From an uncultured Sutterella sp. (GTDB taxonomy: Bacteria > Pseudomonadota > Gammaproteobacteria > Burkholderiales > Burkholderiaceae_F): 64,000 bases of DNA. The notes beneath the pieces are model-generated. The model had not been told where the DNA came from and did no database searches. It saw only the letters and a list, made by a program, of their open reading frames with translations. Location of the stretch: the NCBI GenBank assembly GCA_905202595.1, contig CAJKSP010000002.1:13870-77869 (forward strand), written 5' to 3'. The translations under genes and the position numbers were made by a program. Below are positions 3,692 to 21,695 of this stretch, in pieces; within the stretch, counting starts at the first letter, position 1, and each line of letters opens with the position of its first letter.

Positions 3692-6164
3692 TCAGAATAA
3701 ATAACTCAAGCGGCCGGACATTAGCCACGTGTCTGCCATTTTGTTGCCGACAGTGCGTTCAAGGTCAAATTGAACTTTCAAGACATTCTTCCAAGCGAAA
3801 GAGCCTCCAACGCCAAAATTGCACCACGTGTCGAGGTCGCCCCAGACTTTTTTAAGTTCATCCTGAGGTGCAAGAAATTCGGCGTTTTGACCGCTCGTAA
3901 ATTGGTGAAGAACATCGCCGCGTACATAAAACTCGCCGAACATATTTGCGCCGTTCAGCTGTTTGCCAGTTCTCAAGCCTGCACGCCCAATGAGACTCGT
4001 GTCGCTGTCGGCTTGAATTTTGATGCCGCGCTGCACGCTGTAGTCGAAGCTGTCCAAATAGGTAGCCTGGATCTGCAACTGCGGTTCAAAGAAAATGCCT
4101 GTGGCTGAGTCGGTCAGCGTATGGCCGACTTCAGCGGAGATGGACGCATAGTTTTGTTCAAACTCTCCGGATGTGCCATAGACATTGCCAACGGCACTGA
4201 TTTCGGAAGAAATGCGGCCCAGGCGACCGACAATATCAAGATAGTTTGCTCCGACAGTCAGGGTGTCATACAAGGCAAATTCGTAACGCTTCATATTGCC
4301 TGAACCTCGAACATCAAGAAGGTCCGTATCGCCTTCGGTATAGCCAAACCAAGCGCCGGCAGCGTTAGTGTCGGTCAGTTGCCTTTCAATGCCGAGTGTG
4401 ATTCCTGTGCGATCCCAGCGGTACTGATTGGCGGCGCCGGAGCTTCCGTGATTAACGCGGATCCAAAGGCCATGCAAAGGCGAGTCCGGCTGACGAATCG
4501 TTTCTGAGAGACGACGGTCGTGACGCTCCATTTCGACAGCGGCGTTGTAGCTGGCCCAACCTGCGCCCGTTATGCCTTGCGTAGCTTCAGATTCATGGAG
4601 CGTTACCCGATAGATATACCAATTTTGGCCATTTAAATAATCAGAGGGATTAACAATAAATGTTTTAGATCCATTTGGATCTTCAGCATGTTCGAGTGTA
4701 GTAGATCGCTCCCAATATTCGTTGGCTTCAATATCTTCTTCAGTAATGGTTTTGCTGGCTATGTCGAGCTCATAATTCCAAAGCCCATCTCCTTCAAGAT
4801 TTTCTTTAGAAGCAAATTTAATGTGAGAACCCTCTTTAACTAGTGCAAATGTGAGTGTATTCTCTGTGGAAATTGATTTTAGGAGATGGAGTTGATATGG
4901 TTCGAAATAATGTGTGGATTCAGTGTTGTTAATGCCTGATCCGGATTCAATAAACAGCATATCGGAATTGGCTTTGTTTTCGGCATCCAGATCCATTCTG
5001 AAAATGCCGCCGCTTCCTTGGAGATTGCCGATGATGACGTAATCATGCTTATATTCCGGATGCATTGCATAATCATATTCTCCATTATTCATTGCATCCC
5101 AGAGGCCGATTTCTTTCCAGGTATTCTGAAGATTTTCGTCAAAAAGATTGATGATTCCGCCATTTAAAGTGACTTCCGAGATTCGTTTGGGAATAGCCCA
5201 GTATGGCGTATTGTTTTTATAGCGGACATAAGCTAGAGAAAGGTAAGACCATTGAGCGCCGTCTTCAAGGGTAATGTTGAACTTGTCTCCCGCGGAAGAT
5301 CCATTGTCCCATGTGGAATTCTGCCAAGTTTTCTCATCGCCGAACCAGTAGGAATCGGTTCCGGATAGCGTTATGGAAATGGTGTTGGCAGCGTTATCGC
5401 CTGTACCTTCGCTATTCGGATCATCCATCATGTCAAAGGAGCCGACAAGCTGATTTTGGGTAGAGAGAAAAGTCACTGAAGAGCCTTTCTTGGCGCTGAT
5501 GAGATCGGGCTGACCGGCTAAAACCCAAAAACGTGCCGTGCCGCCAGCTTGTCCGATCACTGCACTAGATTGACTGCTTAAGTAAAGCCCATTGGCGCCA
5601 ATTGATGACAACTGTTCTTCATTGGAAAGGTTGTGACGAACTTCAACGGAAATATTTTTCCCTGTGATGTTCAACTGACCCTTTGAGGCGGCATATAAAG
5701 CATATGTCCCGACGTCACTTGAAAAGTTGGGACTGATGGATTCGGCAGTTATGTTGAAGTCGAGATCGTTTGTTAAATTCAGCGTGCCGCCGTTCGTTGC
5801 TTGAATAGAGAACTGGCTATGTGAGATGAGCGGCTTTTGATTAATTTTAAGTGGAGAGTTGATGGTTTCATTATTTTGAGCGCCATCAACTGTTATTAAA
5901 TTGAAACTAGGCTGGTGCTGGTGGGATGCATCTATGCCATTTCCATTGATGTGAATCCATCCATTCTGATCGGGATCAGATAAAGAAACTCCTGTGCCGA
6001 AGGAGATGGCTGCACTGCTTTCTTGAATGGCGCCAATGCTAAATAAGGCGACAAGTACTGCATGCGGGAGATGTCTATGTTTTAAGAAATGGGTTGCAGT
6101 ATGAGCTGCACGTGTGTGAAAGTGGGGGGGGGGGTATTAACGCCATATCTGAATCTGTTTTCAT
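3692..6164 (-). CDS. autotransporter (type Va) adhesin-like protein with C-terminal beta-barrel, N-terminus frameshifted at a poly-G tract (candidate phase-variable gene or pseudogene in OFF phase)
   Basis: The track ORF 3692..5674 (660 aa) ends ...TWLMSGRLSYLF, an autotransporter beta-domain with aromatic C-terminus. The same frame stays open, stop to stop, up to about 6136 with no ATG/GTG/TTG. That stretch encodes a signal-peptide-like segment (..FLKHRHLPHAVLVALFSIGAIQESSAAIS..). An ATG at 6164-6162 (MKTDSDMALIPPPP) is in the +1 frame, and the two frames meet at a run of 11 G (+ strand 6124-6134). Local GC is about 40% against about 66% genome-wide. Confidence 0.8.
6124..6134. repeat. homopolymeric G11 (C11 on coding strand) tract inside the 5' end of the autotransporter gene
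   Basis: Read directly from the sequence: ...gtgaaagtgggggggggggtattaa... On the coding strand it encodes a poly-Pro (CCC) run. Removing 1 nt or adding 2 nt would fuse the ATG at 6164 to the passenger/barrel frame. Confidence 0.75.
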
Positions 6165-14470: not shown

Positions 14471-14920
14471 CTAGAGGCCGAGAATGGCCTCGACATGCTC
14501 GCCCGCAGGGAGCATGGCGTCGTGCGCTTCGAGCCACGCTTTGAGCGCAGGGAGCGCCGCCTCGCCGCGGGCGCGGACCGCGTCGGGCGGCAGCGGCGAT
14601 TCCGGCCGCACGAAGGCGCTTCGCCCGAAGCAGTCGAAGAGATCGACGCCCTGATAGACCGCGACGTCGGCTTCGCTCGCCGTCGTCGAGAGAATGGGGC
14701 CGGGAACGAGCGGGTCGACCGTGCGGATCTGATGATCGAGAAGAATGGCGCCGAGGAGCTCGAGCGGATCGGTCGTGAAGCGCTGTCCCGGATCCTCGGG
14801 GCTTCCTTTGAGCCAGTAGTAGTGCCACCCGCGCGTGCTGCGGTGCAGCGTGCGCAGGCTCTGCACGTAATCCGTGGTGCTGATGAGGAAGTAGGTTTGT
14901 TCGGCGAGCGGGTTGGACAT
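14471..14920 (-). CDS. hypothetical protein (149 aa, soluble)
   Basis: The track ORF 14471..15400 is a composite. The plausible protein starts at the internal MSNPLAEQTYFLISTTDYVQSLRTLHRSTRGWHYYWLKG..., and the upstream 160 codons overlap the real gene 14961..15392 in another frame. I recognise no family. Confidence 0.5.
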   Translation of the reverse strand: MSNPLAEQTYFLISTTDYVQSLRTLHRSTRGWHYYWLKGSPEDPGQRFTTDPLELLGAILLDHQIRTVDPLVPGPILSTTASEADVAVYQGVDLFDCFGRSAFVRPESPLPPDAVRARGEAALPALKAWLEAHDAMLPAGEHVEAILGL

Positions 14921-14960
14921 GACGGAGAAGAAAGCCGGGGTCGATGGGGTCGGAAGGGCT

Positions 14961-15392
14961 TTACGCCGGCAGGAGCACGTTGATCGTTTCAGCCGCCATG
15001 ACGATGATGGCGATGAGGCCGATGCGCCGCAGGAGCGCGCCGCCCGCTGCATCAATGAAGGCTGAGCGCTTTTCGAAGTGCAGCGTCTCGGAAGCCTTTC
15101 GCAGGTGCCGCCAGGCGAGGGCGAAGGCAAGAAGCGCGAGCGCCGCCAGAATGAGGACGGCGTCGCAGAAGCCGGCGACAAGCGCCGCCCAGAGGGGCTC
15201 CCGGCCGGAGAAGAGGCCGGCGCCCAAAGAAGCGGCGAGAATGACGGCGCTCGCCGCGAGCCAGAGCGCGCGGTGCGCTCGCCATTCGTACCGGAGAAGG
15301 CCGGCGTAGGCGGCGTCGCCCGTCTGCGCGGGCGCGCCGGGGGGCTCCGCAGAGCCGAATGCTTCGCTGTTTTCCATAGTGAAGTCAAGCAT
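14961..15392 (-). CDS. small integral membrane protein (3 predicted TM helices), immediately downstream of the NSS transporter array
   Basis: 143-aa ORF with hydrophobic stretches ALWLAASAVILAASLGAGLF, LWAALVAGFCDAVLILAALALLAFALAW and LLRRIGLIAIIVMAAETINVLL. A 42-nt gap separates it from NSS-A. Confidence 0.6.
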   Translation of the reverse strand: MLDFTMENSEAFGSAEPPGAPAQTGDAAYAGLLRYEWRAHRALWLAASAVILAASLGAGLFSGREPLWAALVAGFCDAVLILAALALLAFALAWRHLRKASETLHFEKRSAFIDAAGGALLRRIGLIAIIVMAAETINVLLPA

Positions 15393-15434: not shown

Positions 15435-16775
15435 TCAGAAAAGACCGCCGGCCGCCACGATGAGAACGAAGACGGGCGAGACGATGCCGATCAGGATGCG
15501 CATCGTGCGCAGCTGGGCCTCGCTCAGCGGCTTGGCGCTCTCGAGCTCGCGCTTCGTCGCCGGCCAGGCCGCCCAGGCGGCGGCGAGCGCGATGCCGAAG
15601 GTCGAGGTCGGCATGCCGATGTTGGAGGTGATGAAGTCGAGAAAGTCGAAGAGGTTCTTGCCGAAGATCTTGGCGTCCGCCCACGGTCCGAAGGAGAGGT
15701 TGGCCGCGCAGGCGACGACGGCGCTGCCGGCGAGAACGAGCAGGATGGCTTTGGTGCGGGAGAGCGAAAGCTGCTGCGTGATGAGAACCGTGCACGCTTC
15801 AAGCATGGAGACGGAAGACGTGATCGCGGCGACGACGAGGCAGAGGTAGAAGCAGACGGCGAAGATCTCGCCGAAGGGCATCTGCGCGAAGATGGCCGGC
15901 ATCGTCACGAAGGTGAGGCCGGGGCCTGCCGTGGGATCGAGATGGAAGGCGAAGACGGCCGGCATCACCATGAGGCCGCCGAGAATCGACGAGAGGATGG
16001 CGAGAAAGGCGATCCAGCCGACGGACGAGGGCAGGTTGGCCTTCGGGTCGAGGTACGAGCCGTAGGTGATCATCGTTCCCGCGCCGAGCGAGAGCGAGAA
16101 GAAGCAGAAGCCCATGGCGTTGAAGAGCGCCGTGCCGTTGAAGTCTTCCCAGCGGGGCGCAAAGAGGTACTCGACGCCCGTCCAGCCGCCGGGAAGCGTC
16201 ACGCCGCGGATGATGAGCGCCACCATGAGGAGGAAGAGCAGCGGCATGAGCACCTTGGAGAGCTTCTCAATGCCCGAGGCGACGCCCTTGAAGACCACGA
16301 GTCCCGTCAGAACGAGGAAGGCGGCGAGGTAGATGAAGGAGAGCGTGCTGTCGGAGACGAAGCTGCCGAAGTAGGCGTTGAGCTTGCCCGCATCGGCGAT
16401 GATGCCCCTGCCGAAAATGGCGTCGACGGCGTACTTGAGGCACCAGCCGCCCACGACCGAATAAAACGAGAGAATCAGAAAGACGGTGAAGACGCCGATG
16501 CCGCCGAAGAGGCCCCAAGGCTTGCCGCAGACGGCATTGAGGCTGCCGACGGCGCCTCGCCGCCCGGCGCGGCCCATGGCGAATTCAGCCGTGAGGAGCG
16601 CAATGCCGACGGTGAGCGTGAAGAAGATGTAGGGCAGCATGAAGACGGCGCCGCCGTTCGTGCCTGCCATGTAGGGGAACTTCCAGATGGCGCCGAGGCC
16701 GACGGCAGAGCCGGCGGAGGCGAGGATGAAGCCGAGGCGGGAGCCCCAGCCGGAGGAACGCGAATTCTGAGACAT
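15435..16775 (-). CDS. sodium-dependent transporter, NSS/SNF (neurotransmitter:sodium symporter) family, paralog A
   Basis: 446 aa. RLGFILASAGSAVGLGAIWKFPYMAGTNGGAVF is the NSS TM1 signature. The ORF is full length (about 12 TM). Confidence 0.9.
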   Translation of the reverse strand: MSQNSRSSGWGSRLGFILASAGSAVGLGAIWKFPYMAGTNGGAVFMLPYIFFTLTVGIALLTAEFAMGRAGRRGAVGSLNAVCGKPWGLFGGIGVFTVFLILSFYSVVGGWCLKYAVDAIFGRGIIADAGKLNAYFGSFVSDSTLSFIYLAAFLVLTGLVVFKGVASGIEKLSKVLMPLLFLLMVALIIRGVTLPGGWTGVEYLFAPRWEDFNGTALFNAMGFCFFSLSLGAGTMITYGSYLDPKANLPSSVGWIAFLAILSSILGGLMVMPAVFAFHLDPTAGPGLTFVTMPAIFAQMPFGEIFAVCFYLCLVVAAITSSVSMLEACTVLITQQLSLSRTKAILLVLAGSAVVACAANLSFGPWADAKIFGKNLFDFLDFITSNIGMPTSTFGIALAAAWAAWPATKRELESAKPLSEAQLRTMRILIGIVSPVFVLIVAAGGLF

Positions 16776-16827
16776 GTAGGAAAAGCTGACGAAGGGTTTG
16801 AGTGTTGAATGAGGGTTGTCTGCCGCT

Positions 16828-18192
16828 TCAGAAGAGGCCCAGGCCTCGGGCCGCCACGAGAAGGATGACGGCAGGCGCGGCGACGCAGAGAATGAAGCGG
16901 AAGGCTTTGAGCGCGCTCTTCGGCCAATTTGCGTTGCGGCAGAGCTCCGCCGCAGCGGCGGGCCATGCCTTCACGCCCGCCACCCAGGCGATGCCGAGGC
17001 AGCCGAGCGGCATGCCGATGTTCGAGGTGGCGAAGTCGAGGAGCTCGAAGAGCGTCATGCCGAAGAGCTTCGCATCGGCAAGCGGCCCGAAGGAGAGCGC
17101 GCAGAGAATGCCGAGCAGGCCCAGAAAGGTCGAGACGCCGAGAACGGCCGAGCGCTTGGAGAGGCCGTGCTCGTCGACCCAGTACTGCGAGCTCATCTCC
17201 AGAATGGAAATCGCGCTTGTGAGCGCGGCGACGAAGAGGCACGCATAGAAGGCGACGGCGAAGGCGCCGCCGAAGGGCAGGTGGGCGAAGACCGCAGGCA
17301 TCGTTGCGAAGGTGAGGCCGGGGCCGGCATCGGGCGAGAGGCCGAAAGCGAAGACGGCGGGCATCACCATGAGGCCGCCGAGAATGGACGAGAGCACGGC
17401 GAGGAAGACGATCCAGGCGGTCGAGGCGCCGATGTTCACCTTGCTAGAGAGGTAGCTGCCGTAGTTCATCATCGAGCCGGAGCCGACTGAGAGCGAAAAG
17501 AAGGCGAAGCCGAGCGCATTCAGCAGCGCCTCGGCCGTAAAGGCGTCCGGATTGGGTTCGAAGAGGAAGGCGAGTCCGGCCGATGCGCCCGGCAGCGTCA
17601 GCCCCCGCGCGATGAGGAGGAGCATGAGCAGAAAGAGGAGCGGCATGAGGATCTTGCTCATGCGCTCGATGCCGCGCTCGATGCCGAAGAGGACGACCGC
17701 TGCGGTAGCGGCAAGAAATGCCGCGTGGCTCAGCGAGGGCGAGAGGCCCGATGAGGCGAAGGCTGAGAAGGCGTCCTTGAGCGCTGTCGGGTCGTCGGCC
17801 GCGCCGCCGCCCGTGAGCGCCTCGGCGAAATAGTGGAGGCACCAGCCGCCGACAACGGAATAAAAGCCCAGGATGAGCGTGCCGGTGAGAACGGAGATGA
17901 GGCCGAGGGGCGCCGCAGAGCGGCCGCCGAGGAGCCGGAAGGCTTTGGCGGCGCCGCCCTTGGCTGCGCGGCCCATGCACATTTCGGCGATGAGGACCGT
18001 GAGGCCGAGGCCGGCCGAGAAGACGATGTAGGGCAGCAGAAAGACGGCGCCGCCGCTGCTGCCTGCCATGTAGGGGAACTTCCAGATGGCGCCGAGGCCG
18101 ACGGCAGAGCCGGCGGAGGCGAGGATGAAGCCGAGGCGCGAGGACCAGGCGGCGCGTTCAGGGGCGGCAGTGGGGGAGCTGTCGTCGGGCAT
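16828..18192 (-). CDS. sodium-dependent transporter, NSS/SNF family, paralog B
   Basis: 454 aa with RLGFILASAGSAVGLGAIWKFPYMAGSSGGAVFLLPY. It is about 45-55% identical by eye to paralogs A, C and D. Confidence 0.9.
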   Translation of the reverse strand: MPDDSSPTAAPERAAWSSRLGFILASAGSAVGLGAIWKFPYMAGSSGGAVFLLPYIVFSAGLGLTVLIAEMCMGRAAKGGAAKAFRLLGGRSAAPLGLISVLTGTLILGFYSVVGGWCLHYFAEALTGGGAADDPTALKDAFSAFASSGLSPSLSHAAFLAATAAVVLFGIERGIERMSKILMPLLFLLMLLLIARGLTLPGASAGLAFLFEPNPDAFTAEALLNALGFAFFSLSVGSGSMMNYGSYLSSKVNIGASTAWIVFLAVLSSILGGLMVMPAVFAFGLSPDAGPGLTFATMPAVFAHLPFGGAFAVAFYACLFVAALTSAISILEMSSQYWVDEHGLSKRSAVLGVSTFLGLLGILCALSFGPLADAKLFGMTLFELLDFATSNIGMPLGCLGIAWVAGVKAWPAAAAELCRNANWPKSALKAFRFILCVAAPAVILLVAARGLGLF

Positions 18193-18208
18193 GGCAGAAG
18201 GAGCGAGG

Positions 18209-18248
18209 AAATAAAGAAAAAGATGAAGCAGGCGCGTTGGGCGCCTGC
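18209..18248 (-). terminator. intrinsic terminator between NSS-C and NSS-B
   Basis: GCAGGCGC-gttgg-GCGCCTGC hairpin at 18228-18248. On the minus strand it is followed by TTCATCTTTTTCTTTATTT. Confidence 0.6.
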
Positions 18249-18270
18249 TTTCCGAGGGCGGGCTGCTGCG

Positions 18271-19605
18271 TCAGAGCAAGCCCGAGATCAGCACGGCGAT
18301 GACGAGGATCGGCGCAATCACGCAGCAGCTGAAGCGCAGCATCCTCCGCCAGCCTTCCGAGCGGGGCGTCTCGCCCGCAATGTCGGCCGACACCTGGGGC
18401 CAGAGCTTCACGCCCGCGAGGTAGAGGATCACGAGGCCGCCGATCGGCAGCGAGATGTTGCTCGTAAAGAAGTCGAAGATGTCGAAGAAGGTCTTGCCGG
18501 CGATGGGCTTCACGTCGGCGAGCATGCCGAACGAGAGGCAGGGCAGCGCGCCCACGACGGCGAGCGCCACGGTGGAGATGACGGAGGCCTTCGGGCGGCT
18601 GTAGCCCTTTTCATCGGCGAGGTACGCGACGAGGATCTCGATGAGCGAAACCGACGACGTGATGGCGGCGACGATGAGGCAGAGGTAGAAGATCACGGCG
18701 AAGAGCTGCCCGAAGGGCATCTGCGCAAAGACGGCCGGCATCGTGATGAAGGTGAGGCCGGGGCCGGCGGTCGGCGAGAGGCCGAAGGCGAAGACCGAAG
18801 GCATCACCATGAGGCCGCCCATGATGCTCGAGACGACCGAGAGGAAGGCGATCCAGAGGCAGGCGCGCGAAACGTTCGTGCGCCGGTCGACGTAGGAGCC
18901 GTAGGTCATCATGCAGCCGCAGCCCACGCAGAGCGAGAAGAAGGTGAAGCCCATCGCCTGCAGGAGCGCGTGGAACGTGAAGGCCTCGGGGTCGAATTTG
19001 AAGAGGAATTCAAGGCCCGCTGCGGCGCCCGGCAGCATCAGTCCGCGGATGATGATCGCGAGCATCAGGAAGAAGAGGAGCGGCATGAGGATCTTGCTCA
19101 CGCGCTCGATGCCGCGCGAGACGTCGAGCGCGACGATGAGGCCGTTGAGAAGCAGGAAGAGCCACTGAAAGCCGAGCGCCATCACGGGATCGGCCGTGAA
19201 GTCTGCAAAGTGCTTGCCGAGAAGGGACTGATCGGCGATGAGTCCCTGTCCGACGAGCGCTTCGCAGAAGTAGGCGATCGTCCAGCCGCCGATGGCCGAA
19301 TAGAACGAGAGAACGAGAAAGCCCGTGAGGACGCCGAGATAGCCCGCCGGCAGAAAGGCGCGCCCGGCAAGCCGGCGGTAGGTCGTGACGATGCCGCCCT
19401 TGCCGAGGCGTCCGAGCGACACTTCGGCGATGAGGATGACGAGGCCTGCCGTGAAGGTGAGGATGATGTAGGGGAAGAGAAAAGCGCTGCCGCCGTTCGT
19501 TCCCGCCATATAGGGGAACTTCCAAATCGCGCCGAGGCCGACGGCTGCGCCGGCGCTAGCTAGCACGAATCCGATGCGGCTCGTCCAAGTGCTGCGTTCG
19601 CTCAT
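18271..19605 (-). CDS. sodium-dependent transporter, NSS/SNF family, paralog C
   Basis: 444 aa with RIGFVLASAGAAVGLGAIWKFPYMAGTNGGSAFLFPY. Confidence 0.9.
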   Translation of the reverse strand: MSERSTWTSRIGFVLASAGAAVGLGAIWKFPYMAGTNGGSAFLFPYIILTFTAGLVILIAEVSLGRLGKGGIVTTYRRLAGRAFLPAGYLGVLTGFLVLSFYSAIGGWTIAYFCEALVGQGLIADQSLLGKHFADFTADPVMALGFQWLFLLLNGLIVALDVSRGIERVSKILMPLLFFLMLAIIIRGLMLPGAAAGLEFLFKFDPEAFTFHALLQAMGFTFFSLCVGCGCMMTYGSYVDRRTNVSRACLWIAFLSVVSSIMGGLMVMPSVFAFGLSPTAGPGLTFITMPAVFAQMPFGQLFAVIFYLCLIVAAITSSVSLIEILVAYLADEKGYSRPKASVISTVALAVVGALPCLSFGMLADVKPIAGKTFFDIFDFFTSNISLPIGGLVILYLAGVKLWPQVSADIAGETPRSEGWRRMLRFSCCVIAPILVIAVLISGLL

Positions 19606-19782
19606 GGTGTTTGGTTCCTGTCATTTAGGGTTGAGGGGGAACGGCTTCAGCGTTCGGCGGCTGTTCTTTTGGGAGCGGCGCCGCTTAGAAAGCGCGCGAA
19701 GTCTCTTCAATCTTATCGAGGCTGAGACGGCATCGAGACGGAAGATGAGGAGAAAGCGCTTGTTTTCAGGGGCTGAAGCGAA

Positions 19783-19821
19783 GCGGTCCCGCCGTCCGAA
19801 CTCATCGGACGAGCGGGACCG
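19783..19821 (-). terminator. long stable hairpin about 35 nt downstream of NSS-D stop (probable terminator)
   Basis: GCGGTCCCGCCGTCCGA-actca-TCGGACGAGCGGGACCG, a stem of about 16 bp with one bulge. The U-tract on the minus strand is weak. Confidence 0.45.
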
Positions 19822-19854
19822 TTTCAAAGCCGAGCTTTCAAAAGGGAAGCAAGA

Positions 19855-21201
19855 TCAGCCGAAGAGGCCTTGGAATACCGCTACCAGCACGAGAATCGGG
19901 GCGAGGATCGCCACGAGGAAGCGAATGCAGCTCAGCACGGCTGCGCCGAAGTTGCGCGGCGTGGAGAGCTCTTCGCGGAAGGCGGGCCAGGCCTTCCAGC
20001 CCATGAGGGCCGCCACGGCGAGGCCGCCGATCGGCATCATGAAGTTCGTGCAGACGAAGTCAAGCAGGTCGAAGAAGTTGCGTCCGCCCACCGTGAAGCC
20101 GCTCCAGACCCCGAAGGAGAGCGCGGACACGGCGCCGAGGAGGAAGAGGAGCACGAAGCTCACGATCACAGCCGCTCGGCGGCTGAAGCGCCATTCGTTG
20201 TGCATGAAGGCGACCACGACTTCGAGAAGCGACACCGCGCTCGTGAGCGCCGCCGTGAGGAGGCAGATGTAGAAGAGGAACGCGAAGAGGCTGCCGAGCG
20301 GCACGTGCGAGAAGATCATCGGCACGGTCACGAAGACGAGGCCCGGGCCGCCGTTGGGCTCGAGCCCGAAGGCAAAGACGGCCGGCATGATCATGAGGCC
20401 CGCCAGCAGCGCTGCCATGTCCGCAAGAACGGCCACCCAGGCCGATGCGGTCGGAATGCAGACGTCCTGCTTCAGGTACGAGCCGTAGGTGATGAGCATG
20501 CCGCCGCCGAGCGAGAGCGAGAAGAACGTGAAGCCCATCGCGTTGAGAATCGACGAAGAGGTGACGTTTTCTAGCTTGAAGTTGAAGAGGTACTCGACGC
20601 CGGCCCAGGCGCCGTCGAGCGTGAGCGAGCGGCCGATGAGCGCGAGCATGAGGATGAAGAGCGTCGGCATCAGGTACTTCGAGAGGCGCTCGATGCCCTG
20701 TTCAACGCCGAGGACGACGGTGCCGCAGGTGATGGCTAAAAAGGCGAAGTGCCAGCCCACGTTGAGGTAGCCGTTCGAGACGAGGTCGGCGAAGTGCGCC
20801 TTGAGTCCTTCGGCGTCGGGCGAGGCTACGGAGCCGCGGATGGCATCGACGAGGTAGGCCACGCACCAGCCGCCAACAACCGAGTAGTAGGAGAGGATCA
20901 GAAAGCTCGTGAGCACGGCGAAGGTGCCGAGCGCAGCAAAGAGCTTGCCGCCGCCCACCTTGCGCATGGCCGAGACGCAGGAGCCGCGGCCGCGGCGGCC
21001 GATCGCGATTTCAGCCATGACGAGCGACAGGCCGATCGTCAGCGAGAAGACGATGTAGGGGATGATGAAGGCGGCGCCGCCGTTGGCGCCGGCCCAGAAG
21101 GGGAACTTCCAGATCGCCCCGATGCCGATCGCCGAGCCGGCTGAGGCCAGGATGAAGCCGAGTCTGGAGGTCCACTGCGCTGCTGTGGAGGTGGTTGCCA
21201 T
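19855..21201 (-). CDS. sodium-dependent transporter, NSS/SNF family, paralog D
   Basis: 448 aa with RLGFILASAGSAIGIGAIWKFPFWAGANGGAAFIIPY. RBS AAGGA lies 8 nt upstream of the ATG. Confidence 0.9.
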   Translation of the reverse strand: MATTSTAAQWTSRLGFILASAGSAIGIGAIWKFPFWAGANGGAAFIIPYIVFSLTIGLSLVMAEIAIGRRGRGSCVSAMRKVGGGKLFAALGTFAVLTSFLILSYYSVVGGWCVAYLVDAIRGSVASPDAEGLKAHFADLVSNGYLNVGWHFAFLAITCGTVVLGVEQGIERLSKYLMPTLFILMLALIGRSLTLDGAWAGVEYLFNFKLENVTSSSILNAMGFTFFSLSLGGGMLITYGSYLKQDVCIPTASAWVAVLADMAALLAGLMIMPAVFAFGLEPNGGPGLVFVTVPMIFSHVPLGSLFAFLFYICLLTAALTSAVSLLEVVVAFMHNEWRFSRRAAVIVSFVLLFLLGAVSALSFGVWSGFTVGGRNFFDLLDFVCTNFMMPIGGLAVAALMGWKAWPAFREELSTPRNFGAAVLSCIRFLVAILAPILVLVAVFQGLFG

Positions 21202-21695
21202 GAGTAATCCTTATGCGTGCAGAGGGCTTGATGTTGTGTTGGCCGAGCTCGGAAAGAAGAAGCCCCGTGCGATGCCGCCGAGCAGGCGGCTGCCGGGGAT
21301 GCGAGGGAATGCTGCTTCGAAGAGAGCCCGTTTTTTGATTGTAACCAAAGGTAGCAGTTGAAATGCCTGATGCACGGCGGCGGCTGTCATCAGGTGAGCG
21401 GCTTTCCCGATGAACGCATGCAAAATTAGGGGAACTGCTTATGAAAATGGCCTGTAGACATTGAAAAACGACAGCAAAAGCCATCCCAAATGCAGGGCTT
21501 TCGGCGGCAGTCCGGCGGAAAGAGCCGCCTTTTCACGCTGTCTTGGCTTTGCGGATTCTTTGCAAAGCTTGACGCCCGCTGCAGCTGGCCTCCGATAGGA
21601 TCGAAGAGCGGAGGTCGGCGCTTCCTGCGGCATGGATGCTGGAAGCGGCCCGCCGGACCGCGTCCGGATTTCGTGTTGTTGGGGGGAGCGCTTTC

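Follow-up and report, generated by a model that had tools for sequence, protein, structure and literature searches.

We analysed a stretch of 64,000 nucleotides (the window) from an uncultured Sutterella sp. (assembly GCA_905202595.1, contig CAJKSP010000002.1, positions 13,870 to 77,869 of the forward strand). Between positions 15435 and 21201 it carries four consecutive genes of the NSS family (Na+:solute symporters), named A to D here. From a comparison of their sequences we conclude, with a probability of roughly 55%, that these paralogs are four specialised importers driven through the sodium site Na2 only. Each of them would probably import its own range of amino acids or closely derived compounds, because the machinery recognising the substrate backbone is shared and the side-chain pocket differs. 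As Na2 is intact, transport would most likely be Na+-driven through this site. The predicted stoichiometry is 1 Na+ : 1 substrate, the second sodium site, Na1, being dismantled throughout the clade to which the paralogs belong, and the site proposed for H+ counter-transport in the known transporters LeuT and MhsT appears to be missing as well.

Four intact genes of the MhsT type

The genes lie on the minus strand, where transcription proceeds from D through C and B to A. Paralog D (19855-21201, 448 amino acids) is the first and most divergent one, followed by C (18271-19605, 444 amino acids), B (16828-18192, 454 amino acids) and A (15435-16775, 446 amino acids), the last gene of the array. All are intact open reading frames (ORFs) with an ATG start and a TGA stop codon. 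An initial annotation, made from the DNA alone, had described these four NSS genes on one strand, and its coordinates and lengths agree exactly with the ORF listing. The assignment to the family is borne out by full-length profile matches of all four proteins to PF00209 (SNF; 161-192 bits, cut-off 27) and to NCBIfam NF037979, 'sodium-dependent transporter' (116-125 bits, cut-off 50). The expectation values (E) for PF00209 range from 5e-47 to 3e-56 (A 6.8e-50, B 4.5e-47, C 2.9e-56, D 4.9e-50). The signature that had been recognised in the first transmembrane helix (TM1) is present in all four proteins of the alignment. There is no further NSS gene in the whole 64 kb window.

Pairwise identity of the paralogs amounts to 45.6-53.1% at protein level, in good agreement with the 45-55% estimated earlier by eye, and to 60.0-64.7% at DNA level, far from the near-identity that had been named as a possible sign of an assembly duplication. 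Third codon positions are 54-61% identical, and their G+C content (GC3) is 88-91% in each gene. By exact-protein look-up the same four-gene array was found on 12 contigs of separate assemblies or sequencing runs (e.g. GCA_964314545.1, ERZ1309949), and the differences between samples comprise 33 synonymous and 3 non-synonymous changes, summed over overlapping comparisons. Assembly duplication or recent amplification is thus ruled out by the DNA identity of 60-65% together with the 12 independent contigs. Likewise, the intact ORFs, the GC3 values, the mostly synonymous polymorphism and the genus-wide conservation of the array rule out pseudogenes.

LeuT had been taken as the closest type, but MhsT proved to be closer. 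The best solved relative of A is MhsT (E = 1.4e-82, residues 4-441 of A on 8-446 of MhsT, 37-38% identity), the match to LeuT being weaker (E of about 1e-36). An AlphaFold2 model of A, built from an alignment of 50 sequences, has a mean predicted local distance difference test score (pLDDT) of 86.6, a predicted TM-score (pTM) of 0.86, 11 long helices and a break of TM6 at residues 228-233. Compared by Foldseek, MhsT structures were the top five matches of this model, with TM-scores of 0.92-0.95 and root-mean-square deviations of 1.8-2.0 A; for LeuT the TM-score was 0.83-0.85. The LeuT fold is indicated by the TM6 break in the model and by the conserved G-x-G-L-G motif of TM1, the unwinding of TM1 not being resolved in the model. 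A length of about 450 amino acids, the lack of TM12 and the end-to-end similarity place the proteins in the MhsT-like subfamily with 11 helices. The best reading of A to D is that of functional NSS importers of the inner membrane (SLC6-like, TC 2.A.22) belonging to this short MhsT type.

The Na1 site is dismantled and Na2 is kept

Species-representative genomes were scanned with paralog B, yielding 69 loci, from which 186 near-full-length NSS ORFs were extracted as a family set. We mapped the residues of LeuT and MhsT on the family alignment; our conversion from chain to native numbering of MhsT agrees with the residue names used in the literature. The Na2 residues (LeuT Gly20, Val23, Ala351, Thr354, Ser355) are present in all four paralogs, with Ile in place of Val23 in D, and are nearly invariant among the 186 family members.

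The side-chain ligands of Na1 are Asn27, Thr254 and Asn286 in LeuT and Asn31, Thr231 and Asp263 in MhsT, and this set is not kept in A to D. The position of LeuT Asn27 is occupied by Ala in all 186 family members (Ala29 in A, Ala35 in B, Ala26 in C, Ala29 in D), that of LeuT Asn286 and MhsT Asp263 by Ala, Gly, Ser or Thr (Ala259 in A, Ala265 in B, Ser256 in C, Ala260 in D). Thr254 is conservatively replaced by Ser. From TM6 to TM7 no gap interrupts the alignment to MhsT between the anchors TYGSY and PAVFA, which makes the assignment of Asp263 robust. In LeuT, the side chains of Asn27 and Thr254 ligate Na1, and a buried carboxylate, Glu290 (Asp263 in MhsT), is the proposed carrier of the counter-transported H+ (PMC4894957).

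A negative charge at Na1 has been described as unifying all NSS transporters (PMC10707687). We looked for it as a carboxylate at the position of Glu290 (LeuT) or Asp263 (MhsT and Tyt1), or as a Cl- site formed by Tyr47, Gln250, Ser/Thr254, Asn286 and the Ser290-equivalent. Neither position carries a carboxylate: the turn equivalent to Glu290 has Ser or Ala in the family, and Gln250, a Cl- ligand in eukaryotic NSS transporters, is Phe (Phe223 in A). At the outer gate, Arg30 of LeuT is replaced by Lys and its partner Asp404 is kept. An exception to the missing charge is Asp261 of the window's paralog D (20419-20421), directly C-terminal to the Ala at the MhsT Asp263 position. In the other 29 D orthologues this residue is Ile, Thr, Val or Leu, and Asp261 may be a species-specific, re-acquired carboxylate near the former Na1 site.

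A homologue search had returned close orthologues of A only. For a wider view, we built a profile from A to D and compared it with 1.84 billion cluster representatives at 50% identity, obtaining 19,118 matches with an E of 0.001 or better. Among the best 150 representatives, 124 have the canonical Asn31 and Asp263. Only six columns are at least 80% conserved in this canonical group and systematically replaced in the non-canonical sequences, namely N31, P61, D263, T264, A267 and L296, and four of them (N31, D263, T264, A267) lie within or directly beside the Na1 shell. The non-canonical sequences nearest to the window form one clade of 14 leaves in a neighbour-joining tree, including clusters from Rheinheimera, Alteribacter and Macrococcus. 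The loss of the Na1 ligands is older than the duplications and common to the whole clade. The loss of Na1 or Na2 residues had been named beforehand as a finding that would speak against functional diversification. Na2 is conserved, and the Na1 side-chain ligands and the neighbouring carboxylate are indeed absent from all four paralogs; the diversification reading survives, this loss having preceded the duplications and affecting the clade as a whole.

Given the missing Na1 ligands, A to D should not be assumed to be canonical LeuT-type symporters with two Na+. It is nevertheless conceivable, if unlikely, that they are ordinary 2-Na+ transporters of hydrophobic amino acids like MhsT and LeuT, in which Na1 would be bound via backbone carbonyls, the Ser residues at the positions of Thr254 and Glu290, water and the substrate carboxylate. 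Conservation of the fold and of the residues contacting the substrate backbone would fit this explanation, as would the conservative change of Thr254 to Ser in every member, the hydroxyl gained by A267S a turn of the helix away from the lost Asp and the database name 'sodium-dependent transporter'. Against it stand the replacement of the side-chain ligands Asn27 and Asn286/Asp263 in the paralogs and the family, the disappearance of the only nearby negative charge and the change of Gln250 to Phe. The replaced columns are specifically those of the Na1 shell, resembling a coordinated loss rather than drift. Moreover, in PMC10707687 the LeuT replacements N27S, N286S and T254A are described as having profound effects on transport and Na+ affinity, and N27S and N286S are far milder than the replacements found here.

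In a literature search of limited coverage we found no description of a natural NSS clade without the Na1 residues and no study of Sutterella NSS genes, both being weak negatives. Tentatively, the sequences may represent an undescribed natural lineage of the NSS family that lacks the Na1 site and its counter-charge, the proposed H+-antiport residue, and keeps Na2. It would include the Sutterellaceae proteins and scattered ones from Rheinheimera, Alteribacter and Macrococcus.

Another variation was seen in six near NSS representatives from outside the window (P0130, P0139, P0171, P0188, P0198 and P0239), which carry Lys at the position of LeuT Thr254. The Na2 residues Thr354/Ser355 are Gly-Ala in four of this group and Ser-Val and Thr-Ala in the other two. 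In ApcT-type transporters a Lys takes the place of the sodium ion, and the Lys at the Thr254 position might substitute for the ion in the same fashion.

Origin and conservation of the array

The 69 loci stem almost all from Sutterella, Candidatus Aphodousia, Duodenibacillus, Parasutterella, Mesosutterella and Turicimonas (Sutterellaceae, Burkholderiales). About 29 complete loci of Sutterella and Ca. Aphodousia contain four NSS genes on the same strand, which are one-to-one orthologues in the order D-C-B-A. In neighbour-joining trees with 100 bootstraps the Sutterellaceae family is supported with 100, and the orthologue groups with 100 (A), 100 (B), 96-98 (C) and 100 (D). Each of the adjacent homologues has its own orthologues in related genomes, confirming the earlier view of old duplications rather than a recent amplification.

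The topology is (D,(C,(B,A))), the grouping of B with A having a bootstrap value of 97 and the node (C,(B,A)) one of 82. This branching order equals the physical order of the genes, indicating old serial tandem duplication. The array arose in this way in the ancestor of Sutterella and Ca. Aphodousia, where D split first, then C and then B and A; all duplications are older than the split of the two genera. Since then each copy has been kept by purifying selection as an orthologue lineage of its own. In Parasutterella and Turicimonas the loci have two genes, the second of which groups with C (bootstrap 98), and the loci of Duodenibacillus and Mesosutterella show an A orthologue only. Group A is also the most conserved of the four orthologue groups. 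At genus level the array is conserved in synteny; it is not specific to this genome, and the cultured S. wadsworthensis DSM 14016 has the same four genes (L011). Several NSS paralogs per bacterium are common, and Sutterella are common asaccharolytic gut bacteria.

A tract of 79 nucleotides in the TM1 coding region of A (16661-16739, minus strand) is identical to B (18060-18138), the third codon positions of A and B being only 61% identical overall. In the arrays of 29 other species the longest exact match between paralogs measures 12-50 nucleotides. The tract is probably the result of a recent short gene conversion. Short-read Logan contigs of the same species stop exactly at the start of B, probably owing to this repeat.

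In seven Sutterella or Ca. Aphodousia loci (L007, L035, L036, L041, L043, L048, L074) an insertion of about 3-4.6 kb lies between the C and B orthologues. By eye, it comprises ABC-transporter-like genes in L035 and a 990-amino-acid membrane protein in L007. These insertions indicate that the pairs D-C and B-A are separable.

Divergence of the substrate pocket

The pocket of MhsT is formed by Ile104, Phe229, Phe230, Ser233, Met236, Ala238, Ser324, Ser327, Leu328, Val331, Leu393, the backbone of residues 26-30 and Tyr108 (bioRxiv 10.1101/2020.04.03.022970). What recognises the backbone of an alpha-amino acid is kept in A to D, i.e. the G-L-G of TM1, Tyr108, Phe253, Ser256 (Cys in C), Glu62 and the gating Lys-Asp pair. 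These backbone-binding residues are invariant across the orthologue groups. In total, 119 alignment columns are conserved across all four groups.

Around the substrate side chain the groups differ. At MhsT position 233 there is Cys in C and Ser in the other three. Position 236 is Ala in A, Ser in B, Cys in C (Ser in a minority) and Ala in D (Gly in the window), and position 238 is Thr in A, Ser in B, Cys in C and Ile in D (Met in the window). Further differences concern position 328 (Met or Ile in A, with Met in the window; Ile in B; Met in C, with Leu in the window; Leu in D), position 331 (Ala327 in A, Met333 in B, Ile in C, Val in D) and position 393 (Leu in C, Met in A, B and D). Only three columns, MhsT 228, 238 and 331, are at least 85% conserved within every group and have at least three states between the groups; 238 and 331 belong to the listed pocket residues and 228 adjoins Phe229.

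The central residue of the TM6 motif, G-M-G in MhsT and generally (G/A/C)-hydrophobic-G, is described to range from Leu to Trp in SLC6 transporters, and in MhsT the replacement M236F at this centre alone abolishes aromatic transport (bioRxiv 10.1101/2020.04.03.022970). All four paralogs fall outside this range. The flanking Gly residues are kept, and the centre is small, with Ala in A, Ser in B, Cys in C and Gly in the window's D. The extended motif reads G-A-G-T in A, the polar G-S-G-S in B and G-G-G-M in D. In C, the unwound part of TM6 (18913-18930, residues 226-231) reads SLCVGCGC, and Cys226, Cys229 and Cys231 are found in 41/44, 31/44 and 44/44 members of group C, respectively. The pocket of C is an unusual, thiol-rich substrate site.

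When columns conserved within the groups served as background, 5 of 15 pocket columns and 10 of 104 non-pocket columns were group-specific at the 85% threshold. Set against all columns the enrichment gave Fisher p values of 1e-4 to 9e-3; the columns conserved within groups are the fairer background. The pocket divergence modestly favours substrate specialisation, as had been suggested in the initial annotation, and does not by itself identify the substrates. Specialisation is plausible insofar as the group-specific residues are enriched in the MhsT pocket, the strength of this enrichment being considered below.

Rather improbable is the explanation that the four proteins are functionally redundant and kept for dosage or differential regulation, with different promoters and the same substrates. 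It could draw on the separate hairpins or terminators between the genes, which suggest independent regulation, on the identity of the backbone-binding residues in A to D and on the broad specificity of MhsT (bioRxiv 10.1101/2020.04.03.022970), by which one transporter could serve many substrates. It is opposed by the four lineages having been distinct since before the divergence of Sutterella and Ca. Aphodousia and by the few lineage-fixed columns lying in or beside the side-chain pocket (MhsT 228, 233, 236, 238, 328, 331 and 393). In MhsT one replacement in the middle of the TM6 motif is enough to alter specificity, and concerted evolution of the paralogs is confined to the one tract of 79 nucleotides.

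Transport of substrates without a free carboxylate (amines, decarboxylated or otherwise modified amino acids), with a site fitted to a different head group, is very doubtful: the loss of Na1, to which the substrate carboxylate binds directly in LeuT and MhsT, removes one reason for a carboxylate, the TM6 motif has an unusually small central residue (Ala, Ser, Cys or Gly) and docking to TuriSERT suggested that an amine reaches into the Na1 site (PMC10707687), but the carboxylate partners Tyr108 and the amide region of TM1 Gly30 are invariant, a Gly is invariant where monoamine transporters carry Asp, and nothing speaks positively for any particular substrate of this kind.

Weight of the evidence and implications

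Several points weigh against the view of A to D as specialised importers driven through Na2 only. Na1 is also built from main-chain carbonyls, from the hydroxyl of the Thr254-equivalent, a conserved Ser here, and from the substrate carboxylate, and the clade gains a Ser at the turn equivalent to Glu290 (A267S); a weaker or remodelled cation site at Na1 is possible. The model of A shows TM1 as a continuous helix of low confidence (pLDDT 61-71) and is uninformative on its unwinding. The enrichment in the pocket is modest, with a Fisher p of 0.023 at the 85% threshold and 0.06 at 65%. All trees are neighbour-joining trees only, and the layout of transcription units was derived from hairpins alone, the one after D having no U-tract.

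A tandem array of transporters is ordinary; the MhsT-like clade without Na1 and without the charge is a so far uncharacterised form of a family that is well known. In the SLC6/NSS field a pair of Na+ sites with a negative charge next to them is held to be universal, and the role of Na1 versus Na2 is debated. If the lineage proposed above is real, its members would be symporters with an obligate ratio of 1 Na+ : 1 substrate and no H+ return step, or carriers of carboxylate-free substrates. It would represent a natural 'Na1 knock-out' by which the contributions of Na1 and Na2 to SLC6-type transport could be told apart, and in Sutterella it would have radiated into four pocket variants, including C with its conserved three-cysteine pocket. 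The clade would offer a test system with four pocket variants in an operon-sized locus and a close crystallisable relative. The array is a stable hallmark locus of Sutterella and hence a candidate route of amino-acid uptake; a link to the amino-acid-scavenging lifestyle suggested in the initial annotation is conjectural.

Transcriptional organisation

Downstream of C, an intrinsic terminator on the minus strand (18209-18250) consists of a G+C-rich stem of 10 bp (18250-18226, 7 GC pairs), a loop of 5 nucleotides and a U-rich tail CAUCUUUUUCUUUAUUU. Its fold has a z score of -3.3, and it is of the canonical type. A very stable hairpin, also on the minus strand (19783-19821), starts 34 nucleotides past the stop codon of D. 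The 95-nucleotide segment downstream of D folds at -42.6 kcal/mol (z = -4.8), and none of 200 shuffled sequences was as stable. The U-tract following this hairpin is poor (GCUUCGCUUC), so it is not a textbook terminator; a terminator, an attenuator or an element stabilising the mRNA are all possible. Elsewhere in the genus, too, the D-C and C-B spacers often contain stable hairpins. The spacer between B and A measures 52 nucleotides and is unstructured (z = -0.1), and the fold and terminator scans gave no significant hairpin downstream of A.

Both hairpins listed in the initial annotation are real, although only that after C is a canonical terminator. A hairpin past D, a genuine terminator past C and a 52-nucleotide spacer free of structure make the transcription units D, C and B-A plausible; B is probably co-transcribed with A because their spacer is unstructured. 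The three units proposed earlier are accordingly plausible from the hairpins, with a single canonical terminator among them and a promoter scan empty of assignable sites. In this sigma-70 scan a single site was found, inside the coding region of D (0.7 expected), and no promoters were assigned. The intergenic region of 434 nucleotides (21202-21635) between D and a divergently transcribed SIMPL gene presumably harbours the promoter and regulatory elements of the array; no recognisable element was seen in it. An Rfam scan of this region and of the 249-nucleotide D-C spacer for riboswitches or leader RNAs gave chance-level matches only (E of at least 0.13).

Genomic surroundings

The upstream flank with the SIMPL and AIM24 genes is kept in contigs of the same species, and a flavodoxin/4Fe-4S gene downstream is kept in 14 other Sutterella loci. 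A mobile or horizontally acquired island is unsupported, as the G+C content of the array equals that of its surroundings and its flanks are common to other loci.

Directly downstream of A there are two small ORFs on the minus strand (14471-15392). One encodes a predicted membrane protein of 143 amino acids with a weak, sub-threshold match to DUF4231, the other 149 amino acids with no family match. The former occurs in only 4 other Sutterella loci and the latter in none. This rarity rules them out as members of the system and indicates that the array and the conserved flavodoxin/4Fe-4S gene are separated here by a variable insertion.

At a greater distance, a gene for a 660-amino-acid autotransporter (3692-5674, minus strand; PF03797, E = 1e-29) lies within a stretch of 46% G+C, the window otherwise having about 65%. 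By eye, its neighbours are malate dehydrogenase-like and citrate synthase-like ORFs. The gene may have been acquired horizontally.

Comparison with known transporters

LeuT of Aquifex aeolicus (PDB 2A65), the prototype of NSS transporters with 12 helices, shares family and fold with A to D. Common to both are the Na2 site (G20, V23, A351, T354, S355), Tyr108, Phe253, Leu25 and Trp8. In contrast to LeuT, the paralogs have no TM12 and lack its long insertions in the extracellular loops EL2 and EL4; Asn27, Gln250, Asn286 and the carboxylate of Glu290 are all replaced and Phe259 is exchanged for a small residue.

MhsT of Bacillus halodurans (PDB 4US3, 4US4, 6YU2-6YU7) is a transporter of hydrophobic L-amino acids with 11 helices. 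The likeness comprises the full-length alignment, the length class of about 450 amino acids, the superposition of the model, the G-x-G-L-G core of TM1, Tyr108, Phe229/230, Ser233, Glu66, the Na2 residues and the Gly flanks of TM6. The Sutterella proteins differ from MhsT by the replacements Asn31 to Ala, Asp263 to Ala or Ser, Gln227 to Phe, Arg34 to Lys and Ala267 to Ser, and by Ala, Ser, Cys or Gly instead of Met236 in the G-M-G motif. The pocket residues 238, 328 and 331 are changed, too, and also vary among the four paralogs.

The clusters from Rheinheimera, Alteribacter and Macrococcus (P0122, P0135 and P0144, each one representative cluster here) are named 'sodium-dependent transporter'. 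In the clade of 14 leaves that they form with the Sutterellaceae proteins, the position of LeuT Asn27 carries Ala or Ser and that of MhsT Asp263 a residue other than Asp. Rheinheimera is sister to the Sutterellaceae family (bootstrap 94 in a subset neighbour-joining tree). Alteribacter and Macrococcus, unlike the Sutterellaceae, keep Gln at the position of LeuT Gln250, and their deeper placement is weak (bootstrap 30-36).

For TuriSERT of Turicibacter sanguinis the use of Na+ at Na2 only, with a 1:1 ratio of Na+ to substrate, was proposed; this was argued from mutagenesis and presented as novel for the family (PMC10707687). Compared by its published description rather than by alignment, TuriSERT retains the Na1-type residues Asn25, Ser230 and Asp262, which are absent in the Sutterella proteins. 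The same behaviour, one Na+ bound at Na2 per substrate, is predicted for A to D.

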